Assembly: GCF_058153355.1 (NCBI RefSeq)
Contig: NZ_CM177019.1
Length of the DNA stretch: 64,000 bases
Reading direction: 5' to 3' (one strand)
Shown: piece after piece, positions 1 through 18,556 of the stretch
Numbering within the stretch: the stretch's first letter is position 1
Layout of the letters: each line of letters starts with the position of its first letter
Notes under the pieces: generated by a model
What the model saw: the letters and a program-made list of their open reading frames with translations, nothing else
Told to the model about the DNA's origin: nothing
The model's database searches: none
Position numbers and translations under genes: made by a program

Positions 1-890
1 AGGAACATCAGGTACATCACAAAGAGGAAAATCGGCAGACCGAGGAAACGGTTGAGCACGATTTTATCTACCGCAGTGGTGAAACGGCTGGGTTCTGCCG
101 TCAGGGTGTTGCTTACCACATCACAGATGGCAGCAATGCACTGGTAACGCGCATCGGCAATGTGCAGCGCCGGATCGTCCATCTCATTACGCAGACGGGC
201 GAGGGCGGCATCAAGATGCTGCGACGCTTCACCGGCGTAGGCGCGGCTGTAGATATCGCCTTCCAGCATTTGCAGGCCCAGCCAGCGACGTTGTTTCAGC
301 GGGATGTCGGAAGGCATCACTTTTGCCAGTGAATCTGCTTCGTTGAGCAGCGGCTGTGCGTAATGCACCAGTTCCACATTCTCGTTAGCTTTATAGCGAT
401 CAATCGCCAGCTTGAGCGCTTCAATACCGCGACCACGAGTTGAAACCAGCGGGATCACCGGGCAGCCAAGACGCGTCGACAGAGCATCAATTTCAATGCG
501 AATATTTTGCTTCTCGGCAATGTCGAGCATGTTCAGCGCCACGATGCAGGGAATGCCGAGTTCCAGCAGTTGTAGCGTCAGGTACAGGTTACGCTCAAGG
601 TTAGACGCATCCACCACGTTAATCAGCAGGTCAGCGTCGCCACTCAAAATGTAGTGACAGGCGATTTGCTCATCGAGCGAGGTCTGCGATGAGATGGTGG
701 TCAGAGAATAGGTGCCGGGGAGGTCCACCAGCGTGACCTGATGATCGGTGGTGGAGAATTGCCCTTCTTTACGTTCGACGGTAACGCCAGCCCAGTTACC
801 TACACGCTGACGTGCGCCAGTGAGCTGGTTAAATAAGGTTGTCTTGCCAGAATTTGGATTACCAATTAAGCCAATGGTTAATTTTTTCAT
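1..890 (-). CDS. feoB: Ferrous iron transporter FeoB, N-terminal GTPase portion (partial; gene continues beyond window start)
   Basis: Reverse-strand translation from ATG at complement(888..890) reads MKKLTIGLIGNPNSGKTTLFNQLTG... (G-protein P-loop), matching the remembered FeoB N-terminus. The ORF runs off the window edge so it is not in the ORF track. Confidence 0.9.
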   Translation of the reverse strand, partial: MKKLTIGLIGNPNSGKTTLFNQLTGARQRVGNWAGVTVERKEGQFSTTDHQVTLVDLPGTYSLTTISSQTSLDEQIACHYILSGDADLLINVVDASNLERNLYLTLQLLELGIPCIVALNMLDIAEKQNIRIEIDALSTRLGCPVIPLVSTRGRGIEALKLAIDRYKANENVELVHYAQPLLNEADSLAKVMPSDIPLKQRRWLGLQMLEGDIYSRAYAGEASQHLDAALARLRNEMDDPALHIADARYQCIAAICDVVSNTLTAEPSRFTTAVDKIVLNRFLGLPIFLFVMYLMF

Positions 891-906
891 TGTTGTTATC
901 ACCGTA

Positions 907-1134
907 TTAACAGGAAACCGCTTCCACTTCTAATAAGGCCAGATCTTTTTTGCGTAATACCAGGCTCACACGACGGGTTTCGATATGAATGGGGTCGCCA
1001 AGTGGAGCGACGCGCACCACATTAAAAGAGGAGCCAGGTAACATGCCAAGAGAAAGCAGTTTTTGGCGATATGCCGGGCTGATTTCACGGGAAAAGCCAG
1101 TGATTTTCCACGCAGTATCTGGAGTGTATTGCAT
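907..1134 (-). CDS. feoA: Ferrous iron transport protein A
   Basis: 75-aa [17 protein letters not shown]... directly upstream of feoB on the same strand; size and sequence fit FeoA. Confidence 0.9.
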
Positions 1135-1242
1135 AGGTGCCTACTTGTTTCTCATTAACTGGATAACTACCTCATGGGGCGTTTGACAGCGACATGAGAC
1201 CAGATGATTTGCCAATGAAGGAGAGATTAAATAATCAACAAC

Positions 1243-1263
1243 ACAATGATAATGAGAATGGTT
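1243..1263. promoter_or_regulatory. Candidate Fur box in the feoABC promoter region
   Basis: caatgataatgagaatggt contains GATAAT/ATCATT-like hexamers resembling the Fur consensus GATAATGATAATCATTATC. feo is known to be Fur-repressed. The exact site is not verified. Confidence 0.35.
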
Positions 1264-1323
1264 TCTATCAGCAATACTTAAAATGTGTGCGAATGTTGGT
1301 TTGAATAATAATCTGACTCAATG

Positions 1324-1337
1324 TTGATGTGGCTCAA
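1324..1337. promoter_or_regulatory. Candidate FNR site (TTGAT-N4-CTCAA) upstream of feoA
   Basis: TTGATgtggCTCAA matches 9 of 10 positions of the FNR consensus TTGAT-N4-ATCAA. feo is known to be FNR-activated. Confidence 0.4.
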
Positions 1338-1466
1338 GGTTATATCGCAGCGAAAATATAATTCGAATAGCGAATTACCAGGACTGGTTAATGTTTAATT
1401 AAGGTTTCATTTGTTAATGAAGTGATAAATATTAACGGGATATATTGTGAGTTTGGTTGTGGAATA

Positions 1467-1497
1467 AAAGTGCCGGAGATATTCTCCGGCACTTTTA
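1467..1497 (-). terminator. Intrinsic terminator downstream of tex
   Basis: Inverted repeat gtgccggagat/atctccggcac flanked by A and T runs (aaaagtgccggagatattctccggcactttt). Confidence 0.6.
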
Positions 1498-1500
1498 TGT

Positions 1501-1550
1501 CAGGCAAGGCGTTCGTTGCCAGATGCGGCGTGAACGCCTTATCTGGCAGG
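1501..1550. repeat. REP (repetitive extragenic palindromic) element
   Basis: gccagatgcggcgtgaacgccttatctggc matches the classic REP consensus core GATGCGGCGTGAACGCCTTATC. Confidence 0.7.
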
Positions 1551-1573
1551 TTTACGTTTGTCTATCAGGGCGT

Positions 1574-3895
1574 TTAACGTTTTTTGCCCATTGCTGCCGC
1601 CAGCGCATCCATCATTGCGCTATTACCGGCAGGCTGCGCTTCACGACCGCGTGGTTTGGCTGCCGGGCGGTTGTTTTGCGGACGTTCATTACCGCCGCCG
1701 CGACGGGCGTTGGTTTCGCCAGGCTGCTCGTCCAGACGCATAGTCAGGGCGATACGTTTACGCTGAAGATCCACTTCCAGCACTTTCACCTTCACAATGT
1801 CGCCCGCTTTCACCACGGTATGCGGATCTTCCACAAACTTGTTCGACAATGAAGAGATGTGAACCAGGCCGTCCTGATGCACGCCAATATCGACAAACGC
1901 GCCAAAGTTGGTGACGTTGGTCACCGCACCTTCGAGGATCATACCCGGTTGCAGGTCGTTCATTGTCTCGACGCCATCGGCAAACTGGGCGGTTTTAAAT
2001 TCCGGACGCGGATCGCGACCTGGTTTTTCCAACTCTTTGATGATGTCGGTTACCGTCGGCACACCGAATTTCTCATCAGTAAAGTCAGACGCTTTCAGGT
2101 TACGCAGTTCGCTGCTGTTACCCATCAGATCTTTCAGTGCCTGCTGTGTTGCTGCCAGAATGCGTTCCACCACCGGATAGGCTTCCGGGTGAACAGTAGA
2201 GGCGTCCAGCGGGTTGTCACCGTGGTTAATGCGCAAGAAGCCTGCGCACTGCTCGAAGGCTTTTGGCCCCAGGCGGCTGACTTTTAACAGTTGCTGACGG
2301 TTCTGGAACTGGCCGTTCTCATCGCGCCAGGCCACAATGTTTTGCGCCATCATGCGCGTCAGGCCAGCCACGCGAGTTAACAGCGGAACAGAAGCGGTAT
2401 TGAGATCGACGCCAACGGCGTTTACGCAGTCTTCTACTACTGCATCCAGTTTGCGGGCCAGTTGCGTCTGGCTGACGTCATGCTGATATTGACCTACGCC
2501 GATAGATTTCGGATCGATTTTCACCAGCTCCGCCAGCGGATCCTGCAAACGACGGGCGATAGACACCGCGCCACGCAGCGAAACATCGAGATCCGGGAAC
2601 TCCTGCGCCGCCAGTTCGGAAGCCGAGTAAACCGACGCGCCTGCTTCGCTGACGACCACTTTCTGTGCGGTCACTTTCGGAAACTGCTTCTGAACGTCGA
2701 GATAGAAACGCTCAGTTTCGCGGGAAGCCGTACCGTTACCGATTGCCACCAGTTCAACGTTATGTTTTTCACACAAGGCAGCAACGGTCATCGCTGCTTT
2801 TGCGGCTTGTCCGGTGTGCGGGTAAATGGTGTCGGTCGCCACCAGTTTACCCGTCGCATCGACTACCGCCACTTTTACCCCAGTACGCAGACCCGGATCG
2901 AGGCCCATCGTTGCACGCAGTCCGGCAGGGGCCGCCATCAGAAGATCGTGTAGGTTACGGGCAAAGACGTTGATTGCTTCATCTTCCGCGCGTTCACGCA
3001 CTGTGCCCATCAGTTCGGTTTCCAGATGCATCAGCACCTTGATGCGCCACGTCCAGCTCACCACGCCTTTGCGCCAGCTATCCGCCGGGGCATTGTTCAG
3101 GCGCAGGCCAAGGTGATCCATGATGATTTGCTCGCAATAGCTCTCTTTTGGCGGCTCATCGAACTGCGGATCGGCATTCAGCGAAAGTTGGAGTACGCCT
3201 TCGTTACGCCCACGGAACATCGCCAGCGCGCGGTGAGAAGGCACCGTTGACAGCGGTTCGTGATGATCGAAATAGTCGCGGAATTTCGCCCCTTCCTCTT
3301 CTTTACCGTTCACCACCGTAGAAACCAAATGCGCGTTCTTCCACAGATAATCACGCACTTTCGCCAGCAGCGCGGCATCTTCGGCAAACCGTTCCATCAG
3401 GATATAGCGCGCGCCGTCCAGCGCGGCTTTGGTATCTGCTACGCCTTTATCGGCATCAACATATTGTGCAGCGGCGACTTCTGGCGTGTGCGACGGATCG
3501 TTCCACAGTAGGTCGGCCAACGGCTCAAGCCCTGCTTCAATGGCGATTTGCCCGCGGGTGCGGCGTTTAGGTTTGTAGGGCAGGTAGAGGTCTTCGAGTT
3601 CGGTTTTGCTTAAGGTGGCGTTGATAGCATTCGCCAGCTCGTCGGTCAGTTTGCCTTGCTCGGAAATGGACTTGAGGATTGCCTGACGTCTCTCTTCCAG
3701 CTCGCGCAAATAGCTCAGACGCGTTTCCAGATTACGCAGCTGCGTGTCATCCAGACCGCCGGTGATTTCCTTACGATAACGTGCGATAAACGGCACGGTA
3801 TTCCCTTCGTCAAGCAGGCGAACGGCAGCGTCAACCTGTTCCGGGCGCGCCTGAATTTCACCCGCAATAATGCGGCAGAACGAATCATTCATCAT
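1574..3895 (-). CDS. tex: Transcription accessory protein Tex (S1 RNA-binding domain protein YhgF)
   Basis: 773-aa ORF starting [21 protein letters not shown] with a C-terminal S1-like region; length and sequence match E. coli YhgF/Tex. Confidence 0.95.
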
Positions 3896-3991
3896 GGTTT
3901 GAGTTCATCTTTTCGGATCAAAAATCAGGGGATAGTTATACGGACTGGCTGGCAAAAATGCCAGCCATCGGCAGGAGGTTAAGACTCTTCC

Positions 3992-4468
3992 TTACGGTTT
4001 CACGTACTCAATAGCATTAACATACCAGCTCGCTTCCCCGGCAGGGGTATTGACCACTGCCAGATCGCCCACTTCTTTTTTCAGCAATGCGCGGGCCATT
4101 GGGGAATCGATAGAGATGTAATCTTTACGGCCAAAAATTTCATCGTAGCCGACAATGCGAAAACGGTGAGTCACGCCATCGTCGTTTTCAATCTCCACCC
4201 ATGCGCCAAAAAAGACTTTGCCTTCCTGTTGCGGGGAGTAATCGACGATTTTGAGATTTTCCATGCATTTAGTGAGATAGCGCACGCGACGGTCGATTTC
4301 ACGCAGACGCTTTTTATTATACTGATAGTCAGCATTTTCGCTGCGGTCGCCCAGACTTGCAGCCCAGGTCACTTTTTTTGTGACCTCCGGGCGCTCTTCA
4401 CGCCAGAGATAATTTAGCTCTTGTTTGAGTTTTTCATACCCTTCCCGGGTAACCAGGGGCGTTTTCAT
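3992..4468 (-). CDS. greB: Transcription elongation factor GreB
   Basis: The ORF track gives 170 aa, but GreB starts at the internal MKTPLVTREGYEKLKQEL (158 aa); the start is placed accordingly. Confidence 0.9.
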   Translation of the reverse strand: MKTPLVTREGYEKLKQELNYLWREERPEVTKKVTWAASLGDRSENADYQYNKKRLREIDRRVRYLTKCMENLKIVDYSPQQEGKVFFGAWVEIENDDGVTHRFRIVGYDEIFGRKDYISIDSPMARALLKKEVGDLAVVNTPAGEASWYVNAIEYVKP

Positions 4469-4695
4469 CTCGTTGATTCCCTTTGTCTGTTTGATAATGC
4501 GCACATTGGGTATAACGTGATCATATCAACAGAATCAATAATGTTTCGCCGAATAAATTGTATACTTAAGCTGCTGTTTAATATGCTTTGTAACAATTTA
4601 GGCTGAAATTCATACCAGATTTAGCTGGTGACGAACGTAAGCTTTTTTAAGAATACACGCTTACAAATTGTTGCGAACCTTTGGGAGTACAAAGA

Positions 4696-6764
<2,069 letters not shown>

Positions 6765-6772
6765 ATAAAACA

Positions 6773-6801
6773 GGAGGCGAAGGTGCCTCCCGTTTTATTT
6801 T
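6773..6801 (+). terminator. Intrinsic terminator of ompR-envZ
   Basis: ggaggcgaaggtgcctcc hairpin followed by cgttttatttt, 9 nt after the envZ stop. Confidence 0.8.
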
Positions 6802-6927
6802 GTGCACTCAGTATCTACTGAATGAATACGGTTTCAGACATCGGCACCATACGAAGTAAAGTGTACTGTAAGCTGATTGCAGGCTAGCGTATCCTGATTA
6901 GTAAAAGCACACTAAAGGAATAGCTTG

Positions 6928-8211
6928 ATGCAACTTACCAACGAAGAACAAGTACAGATTGCTCGTATAAAAGAAAAAATCCCACGCATTGCCGCACTGG
7001 ATCCTGAATGTAAGTTATTCGGTTCTGAAGGTTGGAAATATCAATGGCCGAAGCCTGCCAGCGAGGCGGAAATAGCTTCCTGGGAGAAAAAACATAGCGT
7101 CACTTTGCCACGGGAATATCGAATTTTTCTTCGCTATATCGCTAATGGCGGTCCGGCACATGCCTACGGTCTTGAATCTTTAGGCGGTACAGATATTTAT
7201 GGCGATATAACAAAAGAAAGCCCTGTACCGCTTTATATGACGCAGCAGGATGTTGATGTGTTGAATGCAGGCCGTACAGAAGATGATGAAGAATATAGTT
7301 TTTTTGACGGCGCATTGACCATTCTCACCCTGGGATGTACTTATGATATTTGCCTGGTGGTGACGGGGCAGTATCGCGGAAGGTTAATGCTGACTGATGG
7401 TGATGAAGATTATCCGTTTGATTTTATATATGATAAAAATTTCCTCAACTGGTATGAACGCTGGCTGGACGATTTTATTGCTGGCATGAGTATGAAGGGT
7501 TTCGATAGAAGTTTGCCAGGAACGCAAATTCAACTGCGTGAGTGGTTTTTAACTGAGAAAATCCCGGATTTACGTAGATCCATTTTATTCTCGCTATGCC
7601 GTTTTCCACAGATAGAACCCGAAACATTTGCCCTTTGGGAACATGTTTGCCGCACAGAGAATGATAAAGAATTGTGTGAAGAGGCATTCATAAGATTACG
7701 CCAAAAAAAAGTTTCTTGTGCTGCAGATATTTTTCGACTCTATTTTACAATGCCAGATGAATTACGTGATATTGCTATTAAAGATCTCCGTTTTGCCTGT
7801 AGAGATAGTGTGGTGAATATTGAGGATTATATTCATTCACTGTTAATAATAATGCCTGAACTTGACGATGACACTCTATCCTCAGCTGTCTTTGCTGTAC
7901 GAGAAACAGAGTATAATAAATATGATACTTTTCTGCCGCTTCTCGAACGTATCACTGATGACCGTCAGCAAACATTATTGTGGGCGATGAGTAAGGCGCC
8001 TGATTTCAATGAAAGCCGAGGATTCGTTGAGTTGGTATTACCGCTTTTTGCATCATCAAAGATGGAGAATGTAAGGAAGGCTATTTTGTTGCTCATTGAA
8101 GTTAAAGATAATCGTATTCCACCATTGGTTGATGAAGCTGCAACTCGTTTCCCTGAACTGACCATTTTACGAGAAAACTACTATCTCAGGACGTGGGGAC
8201 ATAAGCCATAA
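6928..8211 (+). CDS. Hypothetical protein with N-terminal SUKH/SMI1-KNR4-like domain and C-terminal alpha-helical (HEAT-like) repeat region; first gene of the AT-rich island
   Basis: Long ORF (427 aa from the ATG; the track starts 3 nt upstream at TTG). RBS aaggaa lies 7 nt upstream of the ATG. Motif SEAEIASWEKKHSVTLPREYRIFLRYIANGG resembles the SMI1/KNR4 (SUKH-1) signature. The C-terminal part, e.g. ENVRKAILLLIEVKDNRIPPLVDEA, looks HEAT-like. Not a K-12 gene that I recognise. Confidence 0.8.
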   Translation: MQLTNEEQVQIARIKEKIPRIAALDPECKLFGSEGWKYQWPKPASEAEIASWEKKHSVTLPREYRIFLRYIANGGPAHAYGLESLGGTDIYGDITKESPVPLYMTQQDVDVLNAGRTEDDEEYSFFDGALTILTLGCTYDICLVVTGQYRGRLMLTDGDEDYPFDFIYDKNFLNWYERWLDDFIAGMSMKGFDRSLPGTQIQLREWFLTEKIPDLRRSILFSLCRFPQIEPETFALWEHVCRTENDKELCEEAFIRLRQKKVSCAADIFRLYFTMPDELRDIAIKDLRFACRDSVVNIEDYIHSLLIIMPELDDDTLSSAVFAVRETEYNKYDTFLPLLERITDDRQQTLLWAMSKAPDFNESRGFVELVLPLFASSKMENVRKAILLLIEVKDNRIPPLVDEAATRFPELTILRENYYLRTWGHKP

Positions 8212-8248
8212 ATTAATGGCTCAGAAATGATCTAACGCGGAGAGAAAT

Positions 8249-8779
8249 ATGATCAGGGAACATATTCAGCAAGCGATAAATAATAGGTTAGCATTTGATG
8301 GCCCATTCAATGTTGTTCCTGAACCTGCAAGCACTGCGTTTGATAGCCGGATCCCGACATTGAAAAACGGTGTCTGGCAGAAGGCCAGCCCTATGTTGCA
8401 GGCGCGTTTTGCACATTGTGGACGTTGGTTAAGCGCTACACATGGAAGCTGGCTAAGTATAAGTGACATGGAAACGCTTTGGCAGGAACACATAGAAGAT
8501 ACGTTTCTTGATGAAATCAAAATGAATGCTGTAGCTTCAAGTGATAATTGGGATAACCATGCCTTGGGACTATTTCGTTCTCATCGCCTGTCACTTTTTG
8601 CCGGTAGTGATTACATTTATGAAATGGTTTTTCTCCTTTGGCTAGATAGTACCGTTGAGCCAGAGGTCTGGGTTTATGACTGCAATGGGGAATCACGTTA
8701 TAAAGATCTTAATGATTACCTGAATGCATATATTAATGATGACGTAAGCGCCTGTGAGCGCTCCTGGCGAGTAGAATGA
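8249..8779 (+). CDS. Hypothetical small soluble Trp-rich protein (island gene 2)
   Basis: 176-aa ORF with GGAGAG RBS 5 nt upstream, 37 bp after gene 1. No TM segment. No family recognised with confidence; the C-terminal VWVYDCNGESRYKDLNDYLNAYIND weakly recalls SUKH-type immunity folds. Confidence 0.75.
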   Translation: MIREHIQQAINNRLAFDGPFNVVPEPASTAFDSRIPTLKNGVWQKASPMLQARFAHCGRWLSATHGSWLSISDMETLWQEHIEDTFLDEIKMNAVASSDNWDNHALGLFRSHRLSLFAGSDYIYEMVFLLWLDSTVEPEVWVYDCNGESRYKDLNDYLNAYINDDVSACERSWRVE

Positions 8780-9402
8780 ATAGCCCCCCTTGCCCCTTTG
8801 ATCCACAAACCGCACATTACCTCGGTACAGTGCAAATCCACTACACCTCAACCACCTTCAACGCTGCCGTTAAGCATTATACCTATCACATTAAAAAGCG
8901 TTTTAAAGGGTTTAAATGGGGAATTGGTACCGCTGGCTTATTGGCTATATTGCCCATGATCCCACAATGGTTGAAACCTTCTCATGACTTTAAACTCAAC
9001 GCAATCAGTACGTTAATTCTTCTATTAATGTTGCCACTCCTCTTATCAATGTTCCTGTTAATCAGCAGAAGAATTAACGATTTTAAGTCAAAAACAAAGC
9101 AAGTTACTTTTACGAAACCCGTGCGTTATGCGTTTTATTTCGAGGGGATTGTTTTTTATGAATCTCATCAGCAGGGCATACTTCGCTGGGAAGATTTTTA
9201 TAGCATTGACTATGAAGAAGATTATTTGTGGCTTTTTCTGCATTTACCGAAGAGTTTTCCCAGAGAAGCGACGAAAGCGTTTTGCGATATTTTCATTCCC
9301 GCCAGCGCGATAAAAGCGCAGCCTGAACTGGATACGTTTTTTCGTGAAACACGCCACTATCTGGATTATCTGTTTGTCCCGTTTAATTCTGACAGAAAAT
9401 AA
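8776..9402 (+). CDS. Hypothetical inner-membrane protein (2 predicted TM helices) with C-terminal soluble domain (island gene 3)
   Basis: 208-aa ORF whose ATG overlaps the gene 2 stop (ATGA). Hydrophobic stretches WGIGTAGLLAILPMIPQWL (aa 48-66) and AISTLILLLMLPLLLSMFLLI (aa 76-96). The C-terminal ~110 aa are possibly YcxB-like/bacterial PH-like (unverified). Confidence 0.75.
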   Translation: MNSPPCPFDPQTAHYLGTVQIHYTSTTFNAAVKHYTYHIKKRFKGFKWGIGTAGLLAILPMIPQWLKPSHDFKLNAISTLILLLMLPLLLSMFLLISRRINDFKSKTKQVTFTKPVRYAFYFEGIVFYESHQQGILRWEDFYSIDYEEDYLWLFLHLPKSFPREATKAFCDIFIPASAIKAQPELDTFFRETRHYLDYLFVPFNSDRK

Positions 9403-9403
9403 A

Positions 9404-9437
9404 AAATCCCCCGTATCTGGTGAAACGGGGGATTTCG
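9404..9437. terminator. Intrinsic terminator shared by island gene 3 (+) and pck (-)
   Basis: aaaaaatcccccgt...acgggggatttcg hairpin with an A-run on one side giving a T-run on the minus strand; sits between the gene 3 stop (9402) and the pck stop (9455). Confidence 0.75.
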
Positions 9438-9454
9438 TCGCTTAACTTATCGGA

Positions 9455-11077
9455 TTACAGTTTTGGACCAGCCGCTACCAGCGCGGCACCCGCAGGGGTG
9501 TCGGTGTATTTATCGAAGTTGTCGATAAACAGTTTCGCCAGAGTTTCGGCTTTTTCCTGCCACTGTTCCGGAGAAGCGTAGGTGTTACGCGGATCGAGGA
9601 TCTTAGTGTCTACGCCCGGCAGTTCAGTCGGGATCGCCAGGTTAAACATCGGCAGAGTGAAGGTTTCTGCGTTATCCAGCGAACCGTTGAGGATAGCGTC
9701 GATAATGGCGCGGGTATCTTTAATGGAGATACGTTTGCCAGTACCGTTCCAGCCGGTGTTAACCAGATATGCCTGCGCACCCGCCGCTTGCATACGTTTC
9801 ACCAGCACTTCTGCGTACTGAGTTGGGTGCAGCGACAGGAACGCCGCGCCGAAGCAAGCGGAGAAGGTTGGCGTCGGTTCGGTGATGCCACGTTCAGTAC
9901 CGGCCAGTTTGGCGGTGAAGCCAGAGAGGAAGTGGTACTGAGTTTGATCGGCAGTCAGGCGAGAAACCGGTGGCAGCACACCAAAGGCGTCTGCGGTCAG
10001 GAAGATAACTTTAGTTGCATGGCCCGCTTTGGAAACCGGTTTAACGATGTTATCGATGTGATAGATCGGATAAGAAACGCGGGTGTTCTCGGTTTTTGAA
10101 CCATCGTCAAAATCGATAGTGCCATCTTCACGTACGGTGACGTTTTCCAGCAGCGCATCGCGACGGATAGCGTTGTAGATTTCAGGTTCCGCTTCTTTCG
10201 ACAGCTTGATGGTTTTCGCGTAGCAGCCGCCTTCGAAGTTAAACACGCCGTCGTCATCCCAGCCGTGCTCGTCATCGCCAATCAGGCGACGTTTCGGGTC
10301 GGTGGAAAGGGTGGTTTTACCGGTGCCGGAAAGACCAAAGAACACCGCAACATCGCCTTTCTCGCCAACGTTGGCGGAGCAGTGCATAGAAGCGATGCCT
10401 TTCAGCGGCAGCAGGTAGTTCATCATTGAGAACATCCCTTTCTTCATTTCGCCGCCGTACCAGGTGCCGCCAATCAGCTGCATACGCTCGGTCAGGTTAA
10501 ACGCCACGAAGTTTTCAGAGTTCAGCCCCTGCTCTTTCCACTGGGGGTTAGTGCATTTTGCGCCGTTCATAACGATAAAGTCAGGTTTAAAACCAGCCAG
10601 CTCTTCATCGCTCGGGCGAATAAACATGTTTTTGACAAAATGCGCCTGCCAGGCCACTTCGGTGATGAAACGGACGGAAAGACGCGTGTCTGGGTTCGCA
10701 CCACAGAAAGCGTCGACAACGAACAGACGTTTACCGGAAAGCTGTTTGGTCACCAGGCCCTTCAGATGCTGCCAGGTTTCCGGAGAGAGAGGTTTGTTGT
10801 CGTTCTTACCTTTGCCTTTATCAGCCCACCAGAAGGTATCGCGAGTGGTATCGTCACGGACGATATATTTATCTTTTGGTGAGCGACCGGTGAATATACC
10901 GGTATCGACGGCAACGGCACCCAGATTAGTTAACACCCCGCGCTCATAACCTGTCAGGCTCGGATCGAGCTCTTCCTGATACAGCAGGTCGTAGCTTGGG
11001 TTGTAAACGATATCATGTACGTCACTGATACCATAAGCCTCGAGTTCTTGCGGGGTCAAACCATTGTTAACGCGCAT
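9455..11077 (-). CDS. pck: Phosphoenolpyruvate carboxykinase (ATP)
   Basis: The track ORF is 563 aa; PckA starts at the internal [30 protein letters not shown] (540 aa). Contains the kinase-1a motif GLSGTGKTT. Confidence 0.95.
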
Positions 11078-11455
11078 TTCACTGCTCCTTAGCCAATATG
11101 TATTGCCTGAATAGTAAAGTCTTTTTGGGGGTGTTAACCGCGACAAGGCTCATAGATTTACGTATCTGGAGAAATTCATATTTGACAAAAAACTCCGTGA
11201 TTCCTGTCACGAAACGGTTGCTATTATCGCAGAAATAGCATTTTAGGTGTGGAAAATGTTCTTAAAAGGTTAAATCTTGGTTTATATGGCGGGAATATTG
11301 TGAGTGGAATCGCATTCCTGAATGAAATTGATGCAAATTCAATCAGTAAAGTATCGATTCACCACGCTAACTTTTTTTGATTATTTTCTGAAAAAAGCAA
11401 AATACTACGGCCCGGATGCGATAATTAACCCACTTTTTGATTCTGGATAACTAAC

Positions 11456-13180
11456 ATGGATAACGTTGAACTTTCACCCGCAACACGCTGGGGGATGATT
11501 GCTACCGGATTACTTCAGGGTCTGGTTTGCTACCTACTGATCGCCTGGCTTGCCGGAAAAAATCTCAGTTGGATTGTTTATGGCGTGCCTGCGACCGTCG
11601 CGTTTTCATCCGTTTTACTCTTCTCCGTGATCTCCTTTAAACAGAAGCGCCTTTGGGGATGGCTGGCGCTGGTGTTTATTGCCACGCTGGGAATGAGCGG
11701 CTGGCTGAAGTGGCAAACTGATGGCATGAACCCCTGGAGAGCTGAAAAGGCGCTTTGGGATTTTGGTTGCTATCTGCTGCTGATGGCAATGTTGTTGCTA
11801 CCGTGGATACAACAAAGCCTTCGCATCCGCAATGACAGTAGCCGCTATCGCTATTTTTACCAGTCAGTATGGCATAACGTACTTATATTACTGGTGATTT
11901 TTCTCGCCAATGGCCTGACGTGGCTGGTGCTATTACTGTGGAGTGAGTTGTTTAAACTTGTTGGCATCACGTTTTTCAAAACGCTCTTTTTTGCAACCGA
12001 CTGGTTTATTTATCTCACGTTAGGTCTGGTTACCACACTGGCGGTGATCCTCGCGCGTACACAGTCACGTTTAATCGACTCTATTCAAAAGTTGTTCACG
12101 TTAATCGCCACTGGGTTGCTGCCGTTAGTATCATTGCTAACCCTGATGTTTATCATCACCCTGCCGTTTACGGGCCTGAGCGCGATTTCTCGCCACATCT
12201 CCGCCGCCGGGTTGCTGTTGACGCTGGCCTTTTTGCAATTGATTTTAATGGCTATTGTCCGCGATCCGCAAAAAGCGTCACTTCCCTGGACGGGGCCGTT
12301 GCGTTGCCTGATTAAAACCGCTCTGCTGGCTGCTCCGCTGTATGTGTTCGTCGCCGCCTGGGCGTTATGGCTGCGGGTCGCTCAGTACGGCTGGACTGTC
12401 GACCGCTTGCAGGGCACGCTGGCGGTGCTGGTGTTACTGGTATGGTCGCTGGGGTATTTTGTCAGTATCGTCTGGCGTAAAGGGCAAACCCCTCTTGTTC
12501 TTCAGGGCAAAGTGAACCTTGCGGTTTCGTTATTGGTGTTGGTAATACTGGTGCTTCTTAATTCGCCGGTGCTGGATAGTATGCGCATTAGTGTGAACAG
12601 TCATATGGCACGTTATCAGAGCGGCAAGAACACGCCAGATCAGGTAAGTCTCTACATGCTCGAACAGAACGGTCGCTATGGACGTGCGGCGCTTGAGTCG
12701 CTGAAAAGCGATGCCGAGTATATGAAAGACCCGAAACGCGCACGGGATCTGCTGATGACGTTAGATGGAGAGCAACATCTTCAGGAACAGGTATCGGAAA
12801 AAGTATTAGCCGAAAATGTGTTAATTGCCCCAGGCTCTGGCAAACCGGATACGGCATTCTGGTCGGCCTTAATCCAGGATCGCTATAACGTGATGACCTG
12901 TATTGAAAAAGACGCCTGCGTACTGGTCGAGCAAGATCTGAATAGTGATGGTCAGGCGGAGCGGATCCTGTTTGCTTTTAATGATGACAGAGTCATTGTC
13001 TATGGCTTTGACCCGGCCAGAAAAGAATGGGACGCGCTTGATATGAGTTTACTTCCGCGCCAAATAACGAAAGAAAAATTACTCGCTGCTGCGAAGGATG
13101 GAAAACTGGGGACGAAGCCTAAAGCATGGTGTGATCTGACGGTAGATGGTGAAACGCTGGAAATAAACCTAAGTAAGTGA
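11456..13180 (+). CDS. yhgE: Inner membrane protein YhgE (multi-pass, unknown function)
   Basis: 574-aa polytopic membrane ORF in the K-12 position between pck and hslO. Confidence 0.85.
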
Positions 13181-13250
13181 CAATGCGTATTTGATTTTTT
13201 ATCGGATACGACGCTTTATCTTACCAACAATAACTTGCGAATTATTGCAT

Positions 13251-13278
13251 AGGCCTGGTAAGCGCAGCGCATCAGGCC
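13251..13278. repeat. REP element
   Basis: The reverse complement ggcctgatgcgctgcgcttaccaggcct matches the REP consensus. Confidence 0.6.
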
Positions 13279-13286
13279 ATTACGTC

Positions 13287-13315
13287 GTAAAATCCGGCAG
13301 AGCACTCTCTGCCGG
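13287..13315 (-). terminator. Probable hslO terminator
   Basis: ccggcagagcactctctgccgg hairpin with a T-run on the minus strand immediately downstream of hslO. Confidence 0.5.
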
Positions 13316-13324
13316 ACATACTCA

Positions 13325-14203
13325 TTAATGAACTTGCGGATCTGCCGGAGACGCGTTGTTGCGGATTTCAGCAATATCCATCGCATTGAACAGATAGTGG
13401 TTACCGCAGTAATCACAATGCATGTCAATTTCGCCTTCTTCCGCCAGAATGCTATCCACTTCTTCATCCGGCAGCGTTTTTAGCGCGTCGGCGCAACGTT
13501 CACGCGAGCAGGTGCATTTGAACTCCACATCCTGCGGATCGTAAACCGTCACCTCTTCTTCGTGATACAAACGCCACAACACTTCGTTTGCCGGTAAGGT
13601 CAGCAGTTCTTCGGTTTTGATGGTTTCGGTTAGCGTTGCCAGGTGGTCAAAGTCGTCCTGCTGGGCATTTTGCGCAGGCATTACCTGCAACAACATACCG
13701 CCTGCAGCCGGTTTGCCGTCTACGTCGCCGGTGCGAATAAACAGGCGCGTCGGCAGCTGTTCAGAACGCATAAAGTAATCTTCCAGGCAGGCCGCCAGGG
13801 TATCACCTTCCAGACCAACCACGCCCTGATAGCGTTCGCCTTCGCTCGGAGTAATGGTGATCACTACGTAACCATTGCCGACCAGCGTTTTCAGGTCGGC
13901 ATTTTCTGGAATTTCGCCCTGCACGCGCGCCACACCGCGCATCTGCTGGTTGTTGTTACCATTAATAACCGCCAGATTCATCGGTCCGTCGCCTTGCAGT
14001 TGTACGGTGATATCACCATCAAACTTCAGCGTAGCGGTTAACAGGCTGGTCGCAACCAGCAGTTCTGCCAGCACGTTTTTAACGGGCTGCGGATAATCGT
14101 GATTCTCAAGGATCTGTTGCAGGGTTTCCGAAACGGTTACCAGTTCGCCGCGAACGGCAAAGTTTTCAAACAGATAGCGATGTAATTGGTCATGTTGCGG
14201 CAT
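13325..14203 (-). CDS. hslO: Redox-regulated chaperone Hsp33
   Basis: [22 protein letters not shown]..., with C-terminal zinc-centre cysteines CTCSRERC...CDYCG; 292 aa from the third ATG. Confidence 0.95.
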
Positions 14204-14227
14204 AATCATCTCTCTTGCAGGTGACAG

Positions 14228-14629
14228 TTATTCACTGTCGCCATGTTTAAATCGTAACAGGTCGCGGCGCTCTTTTTTGTCCGGGCGTCGGTCCGGGTGC
14301 GGCATGGTTAAGGCATTAAGTTTACGTGCCAGCGCCATTTTTTCGCGTTTCTCTACACTTTCTGCAGTCTCTTCATACAGCAAGACTGCCTCGCTGGCGG
14401 GGCGACGCTGTTCAGTAATCGCCTTTACAATCACCGTTCGTTCGTCATTTCCCTGGCGCAGAGTGAGCGTGGCATTCAGCTCGACGATTTTGCTTGGCTT
14501 GCTGCGCTGCCCGTTGTAGTGCACCTTACCGCCTTCGATCATTTCGCGGGCCAGCGCGCGGGTTTTATAAAAACGGGCGGCCCATAGCCATTTATCCAGT
14601 CGAACCTCAACAGCAGGTTTTTCTTTCAT
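14228..14629 (-). CDS. hslR: Ribosome-associated heat shock protein Hsp15
   Basis: 133 aa, MKEKPAVEVRLDKWLWAARFYKTRALAREMIEGGKVHYNGQ (S4-like RNA-binding). Confidence 0.95.
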   Translation of the reverse strand: MKEKPAVEVRLDKWLWAARFYKTRALAREMIEGGKVHYNGQRSKPSKIVELNATLTLRQGNDERTVIVKAITEQRRPASEAVLLYEETAESVEKREKMALARKLNALTMPHPDRRPDKKERRDLLRFKHGDSE

Positions 14630-14639
14630 GGCGTCTCCT

Positions 14640-15308
14640 TCACATTAGCGAGGGGATCAGGCGGCGGTAGTCATTCAGTGACGGATGGTGCTGATACTGT
14701 TTCTCGGCAATCCCGGAGTCAGGATTAGTCACACCGAGGCAGTAACGAATACCAAATTGTGCGGCAGCATCGAGAATCGCTTCGCTGTCATCAATAAACA
14801 GCGTTCTTTCAGCTTTCATACCCGTAGCTTCGGCCACCGCATGCCATAACCGCTGATCCTCTTTCGGATAACCAAATGTGTGGGTGGAAAGTAATAAATC
14901 AAGGTGTGCGTCCAGACCGGTATGCTCAAGTTTTACCGCCAGGTTATGCGGATGAGCATTGGTGAGCAAAATTCGTTGCTTACCACTGGCTTTCAGTGCC
15001 TCAAGAAACGGAATGGTATCTTCACGCAGCACGGCACGCGGTCCCATCTCAGTGGTCATCGCACAGATATCCAGACCCAGTTGCTCACTCCAGTAATCAA
15101 GACAGTACCAGTTTAGCGTATGCTGCACGTCGTGATATTGCTGGCGCATATATTCCATCGCTTCCTGTGGCGTGACCCCGTTTTTCGCCCCCCATGTTTC
15201 AGGCACCAGTTTTTGCCAGAAATAGTTATCGAAGGCGAGGTCGAGCAACGTGCCGTCCATATCCAGCAGAACGGTATCTACGTCCTGCCAGGCAATGTTG
15301 ATATGCAT
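14640..15308 (-). CDS. yrfG: HAD-family GMP/IMP nucleotidase YrfG
   Basis: Internal start MHINIAWQDVDTVLLDMDGTLLD (HAD motif DxDGT) gives 222 aa; the longer track ORF would overlap igaA. Confidence 0.9.
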   Translation of the reverse strand: MHINIAWQDVDTVLLDMDGTLLDLAFDNYFWQKLVPETWGAKNGVTPQEAMEYMRQQYHDVQHTLNWYCLDYWSEQLGLDICAMTTEMGPRAVLREDTIPFLEALKASGKQRILLTNAHPHNLAVKLEHTGLDAHLDLLLSTHTFGYPKEDQRLWHAVAEATGMKAERTLFIDDSEAILDAAAQFGIRYCLGVTNPDSGIAEKQYQHHPSLNDYRRLIPSLM

Positions 15309-15372
15309 GAGGGAAATCTCCAGAGTGAAGCAATTTGCGCGACAGGGTAGCATAACCTGCCGCGCAAACGTG

Positions 15373-17508
15373 TTATTCAATAAGGCTTTCTGAAGAGGTA
15401 ATCAGTTGCGGATTCAGGCAGCTTTCATAATAGGCCTGAATCTCCATCATCCTGGTGCGATGACGTTGATAACGACGCCACGCCTGCACGCCATTATAGA
15501 TGGCGCTACCCAGCATCGTCAGTAGCAAAAGTGTGGTGCTGAGATAGCGCCACAGGCCGGAACGATCCGGGATCGGATGAAGGCCTATATGCTGCGTACC
15601 ATTGGCGTCGGTGAAGATTTTTGTGACGATGCCTTCGGCGTTAAACGGCGTATGCATTAACATTTGCGCCAGTTTCTGGAAAGCGTTCCACTGTTCTTGC
15701 GGCGGGTAGTCGTAAAGTGATGTTGAAGGCCAGGGTTGATCAACAAAATCGCTGCCTTCGTCGCTGACAATCAGGAATCCGCCTGGGGCCGGACTGTTAA
15801 GTGACTGTGCCGCTCGCGCTGTTTCATGCGTGATGAACGGTGCGGTGGAGGTCGCCACCAGGTTATCCAGCGATTCCGCACTCACTGGGCGTAATAACAC
15901 ATTCACGCCATCGAGTTTCCCGGCGTTAGCGCGTTTGACCAGCGCGTCCCAGTCTTTACTGTTGCCGAGATTGACCAGCGCATTTTTCAGTCGCACACAG
16001 TCATCTTTGGCAGAACACAGATCCGCTGTCTTCAGTACTATGTCGCCAAAATCATCAAGCAATACCATGCCGGATTTTTGAATTGCTGAACGTAATGAGG
16101 CGCTGACGCGAGATTCATCTTCCGGTTTAGGGTGCAGCTGGCGATTAACTGCTTCGGTCAATGCCGTCGCTTTGTTGACCAGTTCAGATTCTGGTAATGG
16201 TAATGAACGGGCGTCATTCCAGATGATCTGCGAGCAGTCAAACGGTAAAAAAGGTGAATTGGTTTTCGCGCTCCAGGTACCGGAAGTGCGAATATTACAC
16301 ATTCCCGTACCGCTAATACGCAATGTATCGCCAACCCGCACGCCAGCGTCAGCCAGTTGTTTCACGCTGGTGGCTTCAATGGTCTGCGCGCCTTTCATCC
16401 ACGAGAGGGTGAATTTCAGCGGCATATCCAGCGGGATCCAGAATAACAGCATAAACAGCACCAGTAGCGAGCCCGCAGCGATAATCGTACTGCGCAGCCA
16501 GTGCTGTAACGGAAAGTTTTTTACTTCATCATGCAGCGAAAGATATCGCCCCTGACGCACTACGTGGCGGTCGAGATAGATATCGATATCGGTTTGTTGG
16601 CCGAGATCCTGAGCAATGTAGGGCTGCCAGTGTGCGGGATAGACCAGGTCGATAATACCGAGTGAAATATTGTTGATCTGTTCCTGATCGTTTTCGCCAA
16701 ACAATCCCCAACGACGGGGTGTACCGCGCAGACAATGAATTTCCCGCAGGGAGGATTTTGCCGGGGGCGCGAATAGCCCCCACAGTCCTGCGCCCAGCAG
16801 CAGTAACGCGCCGCCTGCCAGCCACGGAACAAATACATCCGGGGTAATCAGGCAGAAAAAGAACATCAGGAAGGAGGCGACAATCAGCAACGCTTCGCGC
16901 AGCCCGCGCGGACGACTTAGCGCATACTCTTCGTGCGTTTCTTTGCGAATATTGAGTAGCTCGATTTGCTCACTCTCTTCCCCGCGAATAGACGCCTGTG
17001 TTGACGGAACAGGTTGCAAGGCATAGCCGCGAGTTTCCTGCATGTACTCCTGCAGCGTATGACCGTTGAGTGAAATAACCAGCGGCAGCGAATCGGTATG
17101 AATCAGTTCAACGGTATTCTCATCGTTGATGTACTGCTCCCAGAAAGGGGGCAGGTGGACTTCTACCGAATCGAGGTAGTAACGCCATTTATTCGGATCG
17201 TCGGTAGAGATGCCGTAACGCGTGATAGCGTGTGTCAGCATCATGACGTTGTTGCTTTCGGCATTCAGCGCCAGAGAGATCGGTGCCGCGCTGGCTCCCG
17301 TTGGGCCCGGCACCTGTAATACCTGCGTCAGGCTCTCAAGATAATTTTCAACGGCGCTACGTTCTTCAGGTGTGAGTTTACGCGTTTGCGCATCCGCGAA
17401 GGCGTTGGTCCAGGGCAGCTGACGCCGTCTGGATCGCACTTTTATCAGCCATCCCGCAAGTAGTGAGCAGGCCAGCAAAGCAGCTAAAAAAATCACAATG
17501 GTGCTCAT
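15373..17508 (-). CDS. igaA: Intracellular growth attenuator IgaA (negative regulator of the Rcs phosphorelay)
   Basis: 711-aa membrane protein MSTIVIFLAALLACSLLAGWLIKVR...; size and position match yrfF/igaA. Confidence 0.9.
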   Translation of the reverse strand: MSTIVIFLAALLACSLLAGWLIKVRSRRRQLPWTNAFADAQTRKLTPEERSAVENYLESLTQVLQVPGPTGASAAPISLALNAESNNVMMLTHAITRYGISTDDPNKWRYYLDSVEVHLPPFWEQYINDENTVELIHTDSLPLVISLNGHTLQEYMQETRGYALQPVPSTQASIRGEESEQIELLNIRKETHEEYALSRPRGLREALLIVASFLMFFFCLITPDVFVPWLAGGALLLLGAGLWGLFAPPAKSSLREIHCLRGTPRRWGLFGENDQEQINNISLGIIDLVYPAHWQPYIAQDLGQQTDIDIYLDRHVVRQGRYLSLHDEVKNFPLQHWLRSTIIAAGSLLVLFMLLFWIPLDMPLKFTLSWMKGAQTIEATSVKQLADAGVRVGDTLRISGTGMCNIRTSGTWSAKTNSPFLPFDCSQIIWNDARSLPLPESELVNKATALTEAVNRQLHPKPEDESRVSASLRSAIQKSGMVLLDDFGDIVLKTADLCSAKDDCVRLKNALVNLGNSKDWDALVKRANAGKLDGVNVLLRPVSAESLDNLVATSTAPFITHETARAAQSLNSPAPGGFLIVSDEGSDFVDQPWPSTSLYDYPPQEQWNAFQKLAQMLMHTPFNAEGIVTKIFTDANGTQHIGLHPIPDRSGLWRYLSTTLLLLTMLGSAIYNGVQAWRRYQRHRTRMMEIQAYYESCLNPQLITSSESLIE

Positions 17509-17624
17509 GCTTTCCCCATCTTACTTAGTCTGTCAGGCGTGGTCAGTCGCACCGGACACAATACATGATTCTGCGGTTGGCTATCGGCAAGCGTGGAGTT
17601 TAACTTGAGCATCATTAAGCACAT

Positions 17625-17640
17625 CACAGTAACCGCTGAT
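17625..17640. repeat. Direct-repeat copy A (CACAGTAACCGCTGAT) in igaA-nudE divergent intergenic region
   Basis: 16-mer repeated with one mismatch at 17792..17807. Confidence 0.4.
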
Positions 17641-17791
17641 CATAGCAAACCCTCTGAAGGCGGAATATCAGCAAATTCCTGGAGTTATTTCAACCTATTG
17701 ACTTTTAATTTGATTTGAGGATGATTATTTAATAAGTTACATAAATGTAAATAACATGCAATTCACATTGCCGAAAGCGTGTCCGATATCG

Positions 17792-17807
17792 CACAATAAC
17801 CGCTGAT
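17792..17807. repeat. Direct-repeat copy B (CACAATAACCGCTGAT) just upstream of nudE
   Basis: Second copy of the 16-mer, 21 bp before the nudE ATG. Confidence 0.4.
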
Positions 17808-17827
17808 TTCACAGCATAGATCCCACG

Positions 17828-18388
17828 ATGAGCAAATCATTACAAAAACCCACCATTCTGAATGTTGAAACTGTAGCCCGTTCACGACTGTTTACCGTCG
17901 AAAGCGTGGATCTGGAGTTCAGCAATGGCGTGCGGCGTGTTTATGAACGAATGCGTCCAACCAACCGGGAAGCGGTGATGATTGTGCCGATTGTGGACGA
18001 TCACCTGATCCTGATCCGCGAATACGCAGTGGGAACGGAATCCTACGAATTAGGTTTTTCGAAAGGATTAATTGATCCGGGTGAAAGCGTCTACGAAGCC
18101 GCTAACCGCGAGCTAAAAGAAGAGGTTGGATTTGGTGCGAACGATCTGACTTTTTTGAAGAAGCTCAGCATGGCACCGTCTTACTTTTCCAGCAAAATGA
18201 ATATCGTAGTAGCGCAAGATCTCTACCCGGAATCGCTGGAAGGCGATGAGCCAGAGCCGCTACCACAGGTGCGCTGGCCGCTGGCGCATATGATGGATTT
18301 GCTGGAAGATCCTGACTTCAACGAAGCACGTAATGTCAGCGCACTGTTCCTCGTGCGCGAGTGGTTGAAGGAGCAGGGGCGAGTGTAA
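17828..18388 (+). CDS. nudE: ADP-sugar diphosphatase NudE (Nudix hydrolase)
   Basis: 186 aa, MSKSLQKPTILNVETVARSRLF..., with Nudix box GLIDPGESVYEAANRELKEEVG. Confidence 0.95.
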   Translation: MSKSLQKPTILNVETVARSRLFTVESVDLEFSNGVRRVYERMRPTNREAVMIVPIVDDHLILIREYAVGTESYELGFSKGLIDPGESVYEAANRELKEEVGFGANDLTFLKKLSMAPSYFSSKMNIVVAQDLYPESLEGDEPEPLPQVRWPLAHMMDLLEDPDFNEARNVSALFLVREWLKEQGRV

Positions 18389-18400
18389 ATGCGTGAAGTT

Positions 18401-18475
18401 TGCCTGATGCACAATGCTTATCAGGCCTGCGCGGCTCCTGCAATATATTGATTTTTATCGATATTTTCAGACGGA
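18401..18475. repeat. REP-like palindromic units
   Basis: gcctgatgcacaatgcttatcaggc and cggataacgtgttcacgccgtatccgg palindromes in the nudE-mrcA convergent spacer. Confidence 0.5.
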
Positions 18476-18530
18476 TAACGTGTTCACGCCGTATCCGGTA
18501 TAAATAAAGTGACACTTTGTCAGCAAACAG

Positions 18531-18555
18531 AAAAAGGCGCCGAAGCGCCTTTTTA
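18531..18555. terminator. Bidirectional intrinsic terminator (nudE / mrcA)
   Basis: aaaaaggcgccgaagcgccttttt: GC hairpin flanked by A- and T-runs, 2 bp from the mrcA stop. Confidence 0.75.
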
Positions 18556-18556
18556 A

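Follow-up and report, generated by a model that had tools for sequence, protein, structure and literature searches.

The 64,000-nucleotide stretch of contig NZ_CM177019.1 (RefSeq assembly GCF_058153355.1) analyzed here, referred to as the window, carries a three-gene cassette between the core genes envZ and pckA, and the interval that holds it appears to be an old cargo slot whose allelic contents alternate between strains and species. We consider it likely that this slot works without mobility genes, that its alleles are exchanged whole by recombination in the flanks, and that the allele in the window is an orphan immunity-type cassette. The anatomy of the cassette, the alternative alleles, a flank haplotype linked to the cassette, core-gene fragments in some loci, and the linkage of homologues of the second gene to a toxin are all directly observed. 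In the scheme that we favor, strains and related species would exchange slot alleles through homologous recombination within the envZ and pckA genes, with homology on one side only in some exchanges. The ancestral hairpin after envZ would be kept on the left, and the cassette's own hairpin on the right would now terminate pckA. The three genes would be co-transcribed, with a weak promoter near 6833–6862, transcripts reading through the envZ terminator, or a combination of the two as the source, and their presumed benefit is protection from toxins injected by competing bacteria. If correct, this is a clean case of small accessory cassettes spreading in E. coli without a mobile element, the main by-products being a record of core-gene fragments at old allele joins and the pairing of an Rhs toxin family with an immunity family.

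The segment between envZ (5412–6764, + strand) and pckA (9455–11077, − strand, with its stop codon at 9455) is 2.6 kb long and AT-rich, and contains three co-oriented + strand open reading frames (ORFs) between two hairpins, at 6763–6800 and 9404–9435. A cargo-borne leader of 126 nt (6802–6927) contains candidate promoters and a ribosome-binding site, AAGGA (6915–6919), 8 nt upstream of the ATG of ORF1 (6928–8211, + strand, 427 residues). ORF2 (8249–8779, + strand, 176 residues) follows after a gap of 37 nt and overlaps ORF3 (8776–9402, + strand, 208 residues) by 4 nt (ATGA), and this tight spacing suggests that the three ORFs probably constitute one transcription unit. Within the cassette, a terminator scan found just one + strand match, a weak 5-pair stem at 7522–7539. 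The GC content of the cassette is 38–45%, compared to 53–59% in the flanks, and looks foreign. RefSeq annotation of four carrier genomes shows nothing but core genes for 7 kb on either side.

Contents and junctions of the envZ-pckA slot

We surveyed the slot in 5,426 complete E. coli genomes. It resembles that of K-12 in at least 4,073 of them, contains a RelE/ParE toxin and NadS-family antitoxin pair in 1,325 (24%), and contains the window cassette in 18 (0.3%), at 99.0–99.4% identity. A gene for a HEAT::ORF3 fusion occupies the slot in one genome (strain A30), and in one genome among the matches listed (ETEC1738) an IS200 lies at the 5′ foot of the hairpin. The RelE/NadS pair (590–1384 in E. 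coli locus L002; 6070–6888 in E. albertii locus L014) has the same left junction as the cassette and brings a different hairpin on the pckA side, AAAAAAACCCCTTATCCGTTTGGATAAGGGGT. Other taxa add further arrangements. In a Salmonella enterica genome the order is envZ, hairpin, a HEAT fragment, two units each of a short ORF and a PF19929 gene, ORF3, hairpin, and pckA. The PF19929 genes are labelled both CdiI_5 and DUF6392, and the short ORF fragments that precede them gave no database match; from the architecture, they may be toxin remnants. The slot of Enterobacteriaceae genome G50 contains ORF3 and a decayed ORF2, and a more distant Escherichia lineage, with flanks ~91–94% identical to K-12, has a HEAT gene followed by ORF2-like and ORF3-like genes. 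The same three-gene cassette occurs in E. albertii, where it either follows envZ immediately or comes after a chaperone-usher fimbrial operon; some of these loci also have the toxin-antitoxin pair and others do not. Several unrelated contents thus occur in one core-gene interval, as expected of a hotspot, with five states in E. coli alone. We did not find the interval in the set of 41 E. coli defense hotspots published in PMC10121019 (text and supplements searched), and a literature search did not find it named as one.

The original prediction, made from the letters of the window, had placed the operon exactly between two intact terminators, those of envZ and pck. The first of these stands. 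The hairpin at 6763–6800, ancestral and serving envZ as well as, in K-12, pckA, has two arms of 16 nt (6763–6778 and 6785–6800) that are 94% complementary and fold with −19.2 kcal/mol on the + strand and −23.7 kcal/mol on the − strand. U-runs are present on both sides, the + strand tail being UUUUAUUUU, and the terminator scan reported the hairpin on both strands, on each of which it qualifies as an intrinsic terminator. The second hairpin (9404–9435) also folds strongly, with 14-nt arms that are 93% complementary and energies of −20.3 and −21.3 kcal/mol (z = −4.2 and −4.9). Its U-run is strong on the pckA strand only (AUUUUUUAUUUU) and poor, with 3 U, on the operon strand (AUUUCGUC), and it qualifies as an intrinsic terminator on the − strand, that of pckA. 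However, it is not the pck terminator left intact, as K-12 has a single bidirectional hairpin shared by both genes.

The alignment of the envZ-pckA region with K-12 and other alleles, which had been proposed for defining the insertion junctions, places them at the T-run of the envZ hairpin and at the pckA stop codon. In K-12 the whole interval is 76 bp, consisting of the bidirectional hairpin and a 44-bp spacer, GCTTTCTATAAGATACTGGATAGATATTCTCCAGCTTCAAATCA, that extends to the pckA stop codon. Homology to K-12 in the window ends at the hairpin T-run on the left and restarts at the pckA stop codon on the right. No trace of the spacer was found in the window or in five cargo alleles in a junction alignment of nine alleles, and the left junction is identical in five different cargo alleles. 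Because the K-12 spacer is absent and K-12 homology resumes only at the pckA stop, the hairpin at 9404–9435 appears to be cargo sequence that now serves as the pckA terminator. The operon does not therefore lie neatly between two resident terminators; the entire K-12 spacer has been replaced, and the right terminator arrived with the cargo. This is a caution for annotation, in that terminators beside core genes can be cargo-borne replacements rather than ancestral features.

ORF3 adjoins pckA in all loci examined (E. coli, Salmonella, E. albertii, G50, and the other Escherichia lineage), and the 9404–9435 hairpin is conserved jointly with it in six alleles, with one compensatory stem pair (G-C to A-T) in the Salmonella and G50 versions. 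ORF3 and its hairpin thus appear, from these alignments, to be the constant pckA-proximal module of the slot.

The claim that no flanking direct repeats are present holds for a target-site duplication, albeit not in full, since one imperfect 15-nt direct repeat exists, between 6788–6802 (TCCCGTTTTATTTTG) and 9377–9391 (TCCCGTTTAATTCTG), which agree in 13 of their 15 positions. The 64 kb contain no other match with two or fewer mismatches, where 0.22 are expected by chance. The right copy is set 64 nt into the cargo and falls within conserved codons of ORF3 (VPFNSD), and the pair is absent from other alleles. Its position and this absence rule it out as a target-site duplication, and it is probably a chance match.

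Mobility features are similarly lacking. Pfam, PADLOC and NCBIfam scans found no integrase or transposase domains in the cassette ORFs, no tRNA was found in positions 1–20000 of the window, and no Rfam family matched at E < 0.3, leaving no tRNA or regulatory RNA as an insertion target. No recombinase is annotated within 7 kb of the cassette in the four carriers. Domain scans, tRNA scans and carrier annotation therefore all agree with the earlier statement that integrase, transposase and tRNA genes are absent. Searches for a vehicle among 72,556 plasmids and 50,697 phages gave no match down to ~65–70% identity. Neither terminal inverted repeats nor a target-site duplication with a mobility gene were seen, and by these features the cassette is not a self-mobile element.

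Cargo could instead have been inserted site-specifically at the foot of the envZ hairpin by a trans-acting transposase or recombinase, such as a hairpin-recognizing enzyme of an IS200/IS605 type or one associated with repetitive extragenic palindromic (REP) elements. Five unrelated cargo alleles with exactly the same left junction would fit such a mechanism, as would a hairpin at the end of every cargo type, the IS200 that ETEC1738 carries at the 5′ foot of this hairpin, and the near-repeat of the junction close to the right end. However, only 44 bp of the ancestral interval lie outside the hairpin and selection must preserve the envZ terminator, so that a shared left junction is expected in any case. 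No motif is conserved at the right junctions, the hairpins resemble terminators and are accompanied by U-runs, and the near-repeat, which is missing from other alleles, falls within conserved codons of ORF3. Nor would insertion of this kind be expected to produce linked flank haplotypes and core-gene fragments, and we regard it as very unlikely.

We note two details of the alternative alleles. In ETEC1738 the IS200 (566–1290 of locus L003) lies downstream of the envZ stop codon and ahead of the terminator hairpin, flanked by AATAAA on each side, and its hairpin-proximal end, TTTTCTGTGCAC, resembles the window sequence just past the hairpin, TTTTGTGCAC (6798–6808), possibly by coincidence. In Salmonella (3348–5040 of locus L015) the two PF19929 modules sit exactly at the seam FDPQTAH|YLGTVQIHY, which joins the HEAT domain to the body of ORF3 in strain A30 and corresponds to the N-terminus of ORF3 in the window; it may be a recurrent recombination seam.

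Flanking haplotypes and joined alleles

The core genes on either side of the cassette have alleles of their own in the carriers. In pckA, which forms the right homology arm, the 18 carriers are 98.2–99.5% identical, compared to 96.6% or less in all other E. coli genomes. In the left arm, the last ~1 kb of envZ (5800–6764), the carriers are at 97.6–99.4% and all other E. coli genomes at 96.1% or less. This gap nearly closes in a control region 4–6 kb away, where 15 carriers show 98.9–99.4% identity and the best non-carriers 98.1%. One carrier, 2013C-4282, is at 98.1% and level with the non-carriers in this region, and two others, EC42405 and WL297, are absent from the best 45; at the 3′ end of envZ these three genomes are the closest of all to the window, at 99.4%. 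In a sliding-window comparison with K-12, pckA divergence is 5–6% up to ~10800 and then ~0–1%, and envZ divergence climbs toward the junction, reaching 5.7%. Flank incongruence, judged from identity rankings and mosaic profiles, is therefore evident in the carrier-specific pckA and envZ 3′ alleles, and speaks against vertical retention as a complete explanation. Exchange of this kind is what has been proposed for hotspots without mobile elements, which are described as diversifying by double recombination at flanking core genes (PMC5635113). The suggestion in the original prediction of recombination-mediated cargo exchange at a hotspot agrees with the alternative contents of the slot, with these carrier-linked alleles, and with the core-gene fragments found in E. 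albertii.

The E. albertii type strain (locus L031) matches the window in its left junction, its leader, the set of three genes, and the hairpin, with 14 differences in the leader and identities of 92.9% for ORF1, 90.8% for ORF2, 84.9% for ORF3, 90% for envZ, and 92.8% for pckA. Because this strain shares the junction and the leader, and divergence is similar in cassette and flanks, the cassette allele appears to be old. E. albertii was considered as a recent donor and rejected; the window pckA is 93.5% identical to that of E. albertii and 95.5% to that of K-12, and the cassettes are 85–94% identical.

In the type strain and in two other E. albertii loci (L014 and L029), ORF3 and its hairpin are followed by a pckA fragment, an envZ fragment, a hairpin, the toxin-antitoxin pair, and then intact pckA. 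The pckA fragment consists of 57 nt of the 3′ end plus a 73-nt internal piece, and the envZ fragment of the last 245 nt of the gene with its hairpin. These loci appear to be two slot alleles in tandem, united by an illegitimate pckA-envZ join, which is the product expected from one-sided homology. In locus L028 (2582–3023 and 3599–8066) envZ is followed by two hairpins with a REP-like insert between them, then by a K-12-like spacer and the decayed remnant of a pckA 3′ end. A fimbrial operon comes next, ahead of the cassette and intact pckA. This operon encodes FimA, PapD, an usher, and a 416-residue adhesin-like protein.

These comparisons also bear on whether the cassette is an ancestral Escherichia locus that was vertically kept in a few lineages and deleted in most, a relic rather than an island, with the flank divergence reflecting an old balanced haplotype. 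The E. albertii type strain, with the same junction, leader, genes, and hairpin at species-level divergence, is what such a history would predict, and the presence of ORF3 at the same place in Salmonella and G50 is consistent with it. However, the K-12-like spacer and pckA fragment in E. albertii indicate that the 'empty' state is old too, and the foreign-looking GC content of the cassette is not what an ancestral locus would suggest. Vertical descent also does not account for 2013C-4282, EC42405, and WL297, which are closest to the window at the envZ 3′ end yet not close 4–6 kb away, or for the tandem joins in E. albertii, which require the transfer of whole envZ-pckA segments. We think that purely vertical retention is unlikely, and that an old polymorphism and recombinational spread are both involved.

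Probable orphan immunity-type genes

Evidence for an immunity-type function comes from the genomic context of ORF2, which has no Pfam match. A scan of one genome per species gave 20 loci with ORF2 homologues, and in seven of these, as well as in Pectobacterium parmentieri, the homologue begins a few bases after an ORF with one conserved Rhs tail. These eight Rhs-linked loci are in Serratia, Lonsdalea, Pectobacterium, Azovibrio, Sphingomonas, and Burkholderia, spanning the Alpha-, Beta-, and Gammaproteobacteria. The tail is ~125 residues long after a DPxGL motif, has the invariant segments GHTPDVGWGG and N(S/A)Y(I/V)GGATQA, and was seen at 5600–5981 of locus L022, 5600–5987 of L033, in L037, L046, L047, L048, and L049, and at 2950–3366 of L051 (E. 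coli M18). No Pfam or PDB match to it was found with either single sequences or a profile. We observed that this tail family always precedes an ORF2-family gene.

The same tail is present in 70 of the 5,426 E. coli genomes (~1.3%), followed by a 176-residue immunity gene, and ORF2 is 54% identical (E = 3e-69) to the Rhs-linked immunity protein of E. coli M18. None of 60 listed among these 70 toxin carriers has the window cassette, and tblastn found no match to the toxin tail in the 64-kb window. Other ORF2 homologues, in Bacteroides, Parabacteroides, and a metagenome contig, belong to arrays that follow a tyrosine recombinase gene and also contain Imm19, Imm21, Imm32, and SUKH genes. As its relatives occupy the cognate-immunity position after the Rhs tail and the window has no such toxin, ORF2 appears by homology to be an orphan, diverged immunity protein. 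Bacteroidales orphan immunity proteins only ~30% identical to the cognate one have been shown to be protective (PMC12247911). An unannotated Rhs toxin family can now be paired with the unannotated immunity family of ORF2. If protective, the cassette may matter for competition between gut strains, with the toxin in ~1.3% and the toxin-less copy in 0.3% of E. coli genomes.

ORF1 is named 'SMI1/KNR4 family protein' in RefSeq, and residues 43–152 match Pfam PF09346 (SMI1_KNR4) with 29.7 bits, above the cut-off of 25.4. This N-terminal domain places ORF1 in the SUKH superfamily (Zhang, Iyer & Aravind 2011, PMC3113570), an established immunity superfamily (PMC12247911), although ORF1 differs in having a fused HEAT-like C-terminal region of ~230 residues. 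Its homologues carry PF13646 (HEAT_2) in that region; the fusion protein of A30, with HEAT at its N-terminus, showed no BLASTP similarity there to the C-terminus of ORF1. The family is rare (24 clusters in 5.8 billion proteins) and elsewhere occurs as lone genes between core genes, without mobility genes. No cognate toxin for ORF1 was found. The cassette combines toxin-linked homologues elsewhere (ORF2) and a SUKH-1 domain (ORF1) with the lack of an adjacent cognate toxin, as in orphan immunity loci. Paralogues of ORF1 with 40–62% identity lie between yoaA and yoaB in E. coli (8001–9275 of locus L010) and after dkgA in Klebsiella aerogenes (8001–9287 of L007) and Superficieibacter (8001–9850 of L006). 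In Superficieibacter the paralogue is followed by a 170-residue ORF that is 17% identical to ORF2 and has no Pfam match.

ORF3 is modelled (pLDDT, the predicted local distance difference test score, of 72.7) as a protein with two membrane helices and a beta-rich C-terminal domain. One homologue is weakly YcxB-like, albeit below threshold (E = 0.004), and no toxin linkage of ORF3 was found. Its constant position and its fusion to HEAT in some alleles suggest that ORF3 may confer immunity to a toxin that targets membranes, or may be a partner common to the variable genes upstream of it. A role as a PycTM defense effector was considered and rejected, as the single PADLOC match (E = 0.0057) most likely reflects similarity of membrane helices; beyond this, searches of the three cassette proteins against known defense systems (PADLOC, NCBIfam) gave nothing useful.

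The genes could also be read as an uncharacterized phage-defense or stress module, with the SUKH/HEAT protein as the sensor and the membrane protein as the effector. The RelE/NadS pair in the same slot in 24% of genomes, the weak PycTM match of ORF3, and the fact that ORF3 is never beside a toxin point in this direction. Neither ORF1 nor ORF2 has a PADLOC match, however, and the relatives of ORF2 follow one Rhs toxin family in eight loci and also occur in immunity arrays. With SUKH an established immunity superfamily and PF19929/CdiI_5 genes in the Salmonella allele, we find a defense module quite improbable. A more elaborate version of the immunity reading, for which we see a slightly smaller chance still, is a dedicated immunity locus, anchored by ORF3 and its hairpin and conserved across Enterobacteriaceae genera. 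The terminator hairpin would be a fixed docking point at which new immunity cassettes arrive, ORF3 the common membrane partner that the variable upstream immunity proteins need in order to work (fused to a HEAT domain in some alleles), and read-through from envZ would tie immunity to envelope-stress signaling.

Several points weigh against our preferred reading of exchanged slot alleles that carry orphan immunity-type genes. Both the protective function and the expression of the cassette are predicted from sequence. The AlphaFold model of ORF2 is mediocre (pLDDT 66.5), and its best Foldseek match in the PDB, an uncharacterised Salmonella protein (E = 0.05, TM-score 0.35), is not significant. 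ORF2 and its cognate-type counterpart in E. coli are just 54% identical, which makes any assignment of ORF2 specificity tentative. Divergence between E. coli and E. albertii is similar in the cassette (85–94% nucleotide identity) and in the flanks (90–93%), and because of this similarity long vertical persistence with repeated loss could partly explain the pattern without recent import. The argument from incongruence is itself one of identity rankings.

The slot has clear parallels to described systems. Like the mobile-element-free hotspots (PMC5635113), it has many contents in one core-gene interval, no integrase, transposase, or att site, and flanking core genes with cargo-linked, incongruent alleles. 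It differs from these in being tiny (76 bp when 'empty'), in being conserved as a slot across genera, in that each cargo brings its own pckA-side terminator, and in the envZ and pckA fragments that record one-sided, illegitimate joins. Acquired interbacterial defense clusters (Ross et al. 2019, bioRxiv 10.1101/471110; PMC12247911) similarly consist of co-oriented short immunity-like genes without a toxin and include SUKH proteins, and an ORF2 homologue occurs in a recombinase-linked array of the Bacteroidales. In contrast to them, the cassette has no tyrosine recombinase and no repeated intergenic motif, consists of just three genes, resides in Enterobacteriaceae, and spreads via core-gene flanks. 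By these comparisons it appears to work like a recombinase-associated acquired interbacterial defense (rAID) cluster, yet not to be a member of that class, for want of the recombinase and the intergenic motifs. A third parallel is with the orphan toxin-tail/immunity modules that follow rhs and cdi genes (Poole et al. 2011, PMC3150448), which resemble the two units of short ORF plus PF19929/CdiI_5 gene in Salmonella and share with the cassette, through ORF2, an Rhs-linked immunity family; the slot differs from these in having no rhs or cdiA nearby and, in the window allele, no toxin fragment.

Candidate promoters and a neighboring variable spot

The original prediction held that expression must come from a promoter within 6802–6927, and offered TTGCAG at 6877–6882, a 17-bp spacer, and a poor −10 around 6900–6905. 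These elements are present as described. We scored promoters with a simple sigma-70 matrix, with published consensus frequencies and random 171-nt windows as background. This site, with AGTAAA as its −10, scores −2.76, compared to a mean best score of 6.0 in the random windows. In the E. albertii type strain AGTAAA becomes GGTAGA, and in the leader of E. albertii locus L014 the spacing from this site to a conserved CCTGAT block differs by 11 nt. The best candidate is TTCAGA (6833–6838), an 18-bp spacer, and TAAAGT (6857–6862), which scores 8.99, a value equalled by 9% of random windows; the best sites upstream of ompR (4681–5415, + strand) and of pckA score 10.0 and 8.1, respectively. The E. 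albertii type strain has both hexamers in identical form despite the 14 other leader differences, and they are not kept in L014.

That expression must start within the leader does not follow from these data, as the candidate sites are weak and sister alleles leave no room for a promoter after the hairpin. In HEAT-type sister alleles the first ATG lies just 36–37 nt past the hairpin; this makes read-through from envZ a live alternative, and the spacing points to read-through or to a promoter that overlaps the hairpin. In its strongest form, the cassette would have no promoter of its own and would be transcribed as the tail of the ompR-envZ operon. The lack of any + strand promoter with at least 9 of 12 matches in 6802–6927, and the ease with which random windows equal the best matrix candidate, are consistent with this. 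However, the envZ hairpin is strong (−19.2 kcal/mol on the + strand, with its UUUUAUUUU tail), the 126-nt leader travels with the cargo and keeps TTCAGA and TAAAGT in the E. albertii type strain, and ORF1 homologues elsewhere occupy divergent or stand-alone positions in which they need promoters of their own. Transcription by read-through alone is thus a tentative proposal, to which we would give somewhat less than an even chance.

A further difference from K-12 lies 4 kb from the cassette. In positions 12900–13500 of the window, strong divergence affects the end of yhgE (3′) together with the spacer that separates it from hslO, with up to 112 mismatches per 300 nt, and the spacer carries an extra REP-like element, GCCTGGTAAGCGCAGCGCATCAGGC (~13253–13278). 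The yhgE-hslO region looks like another small variable spot.

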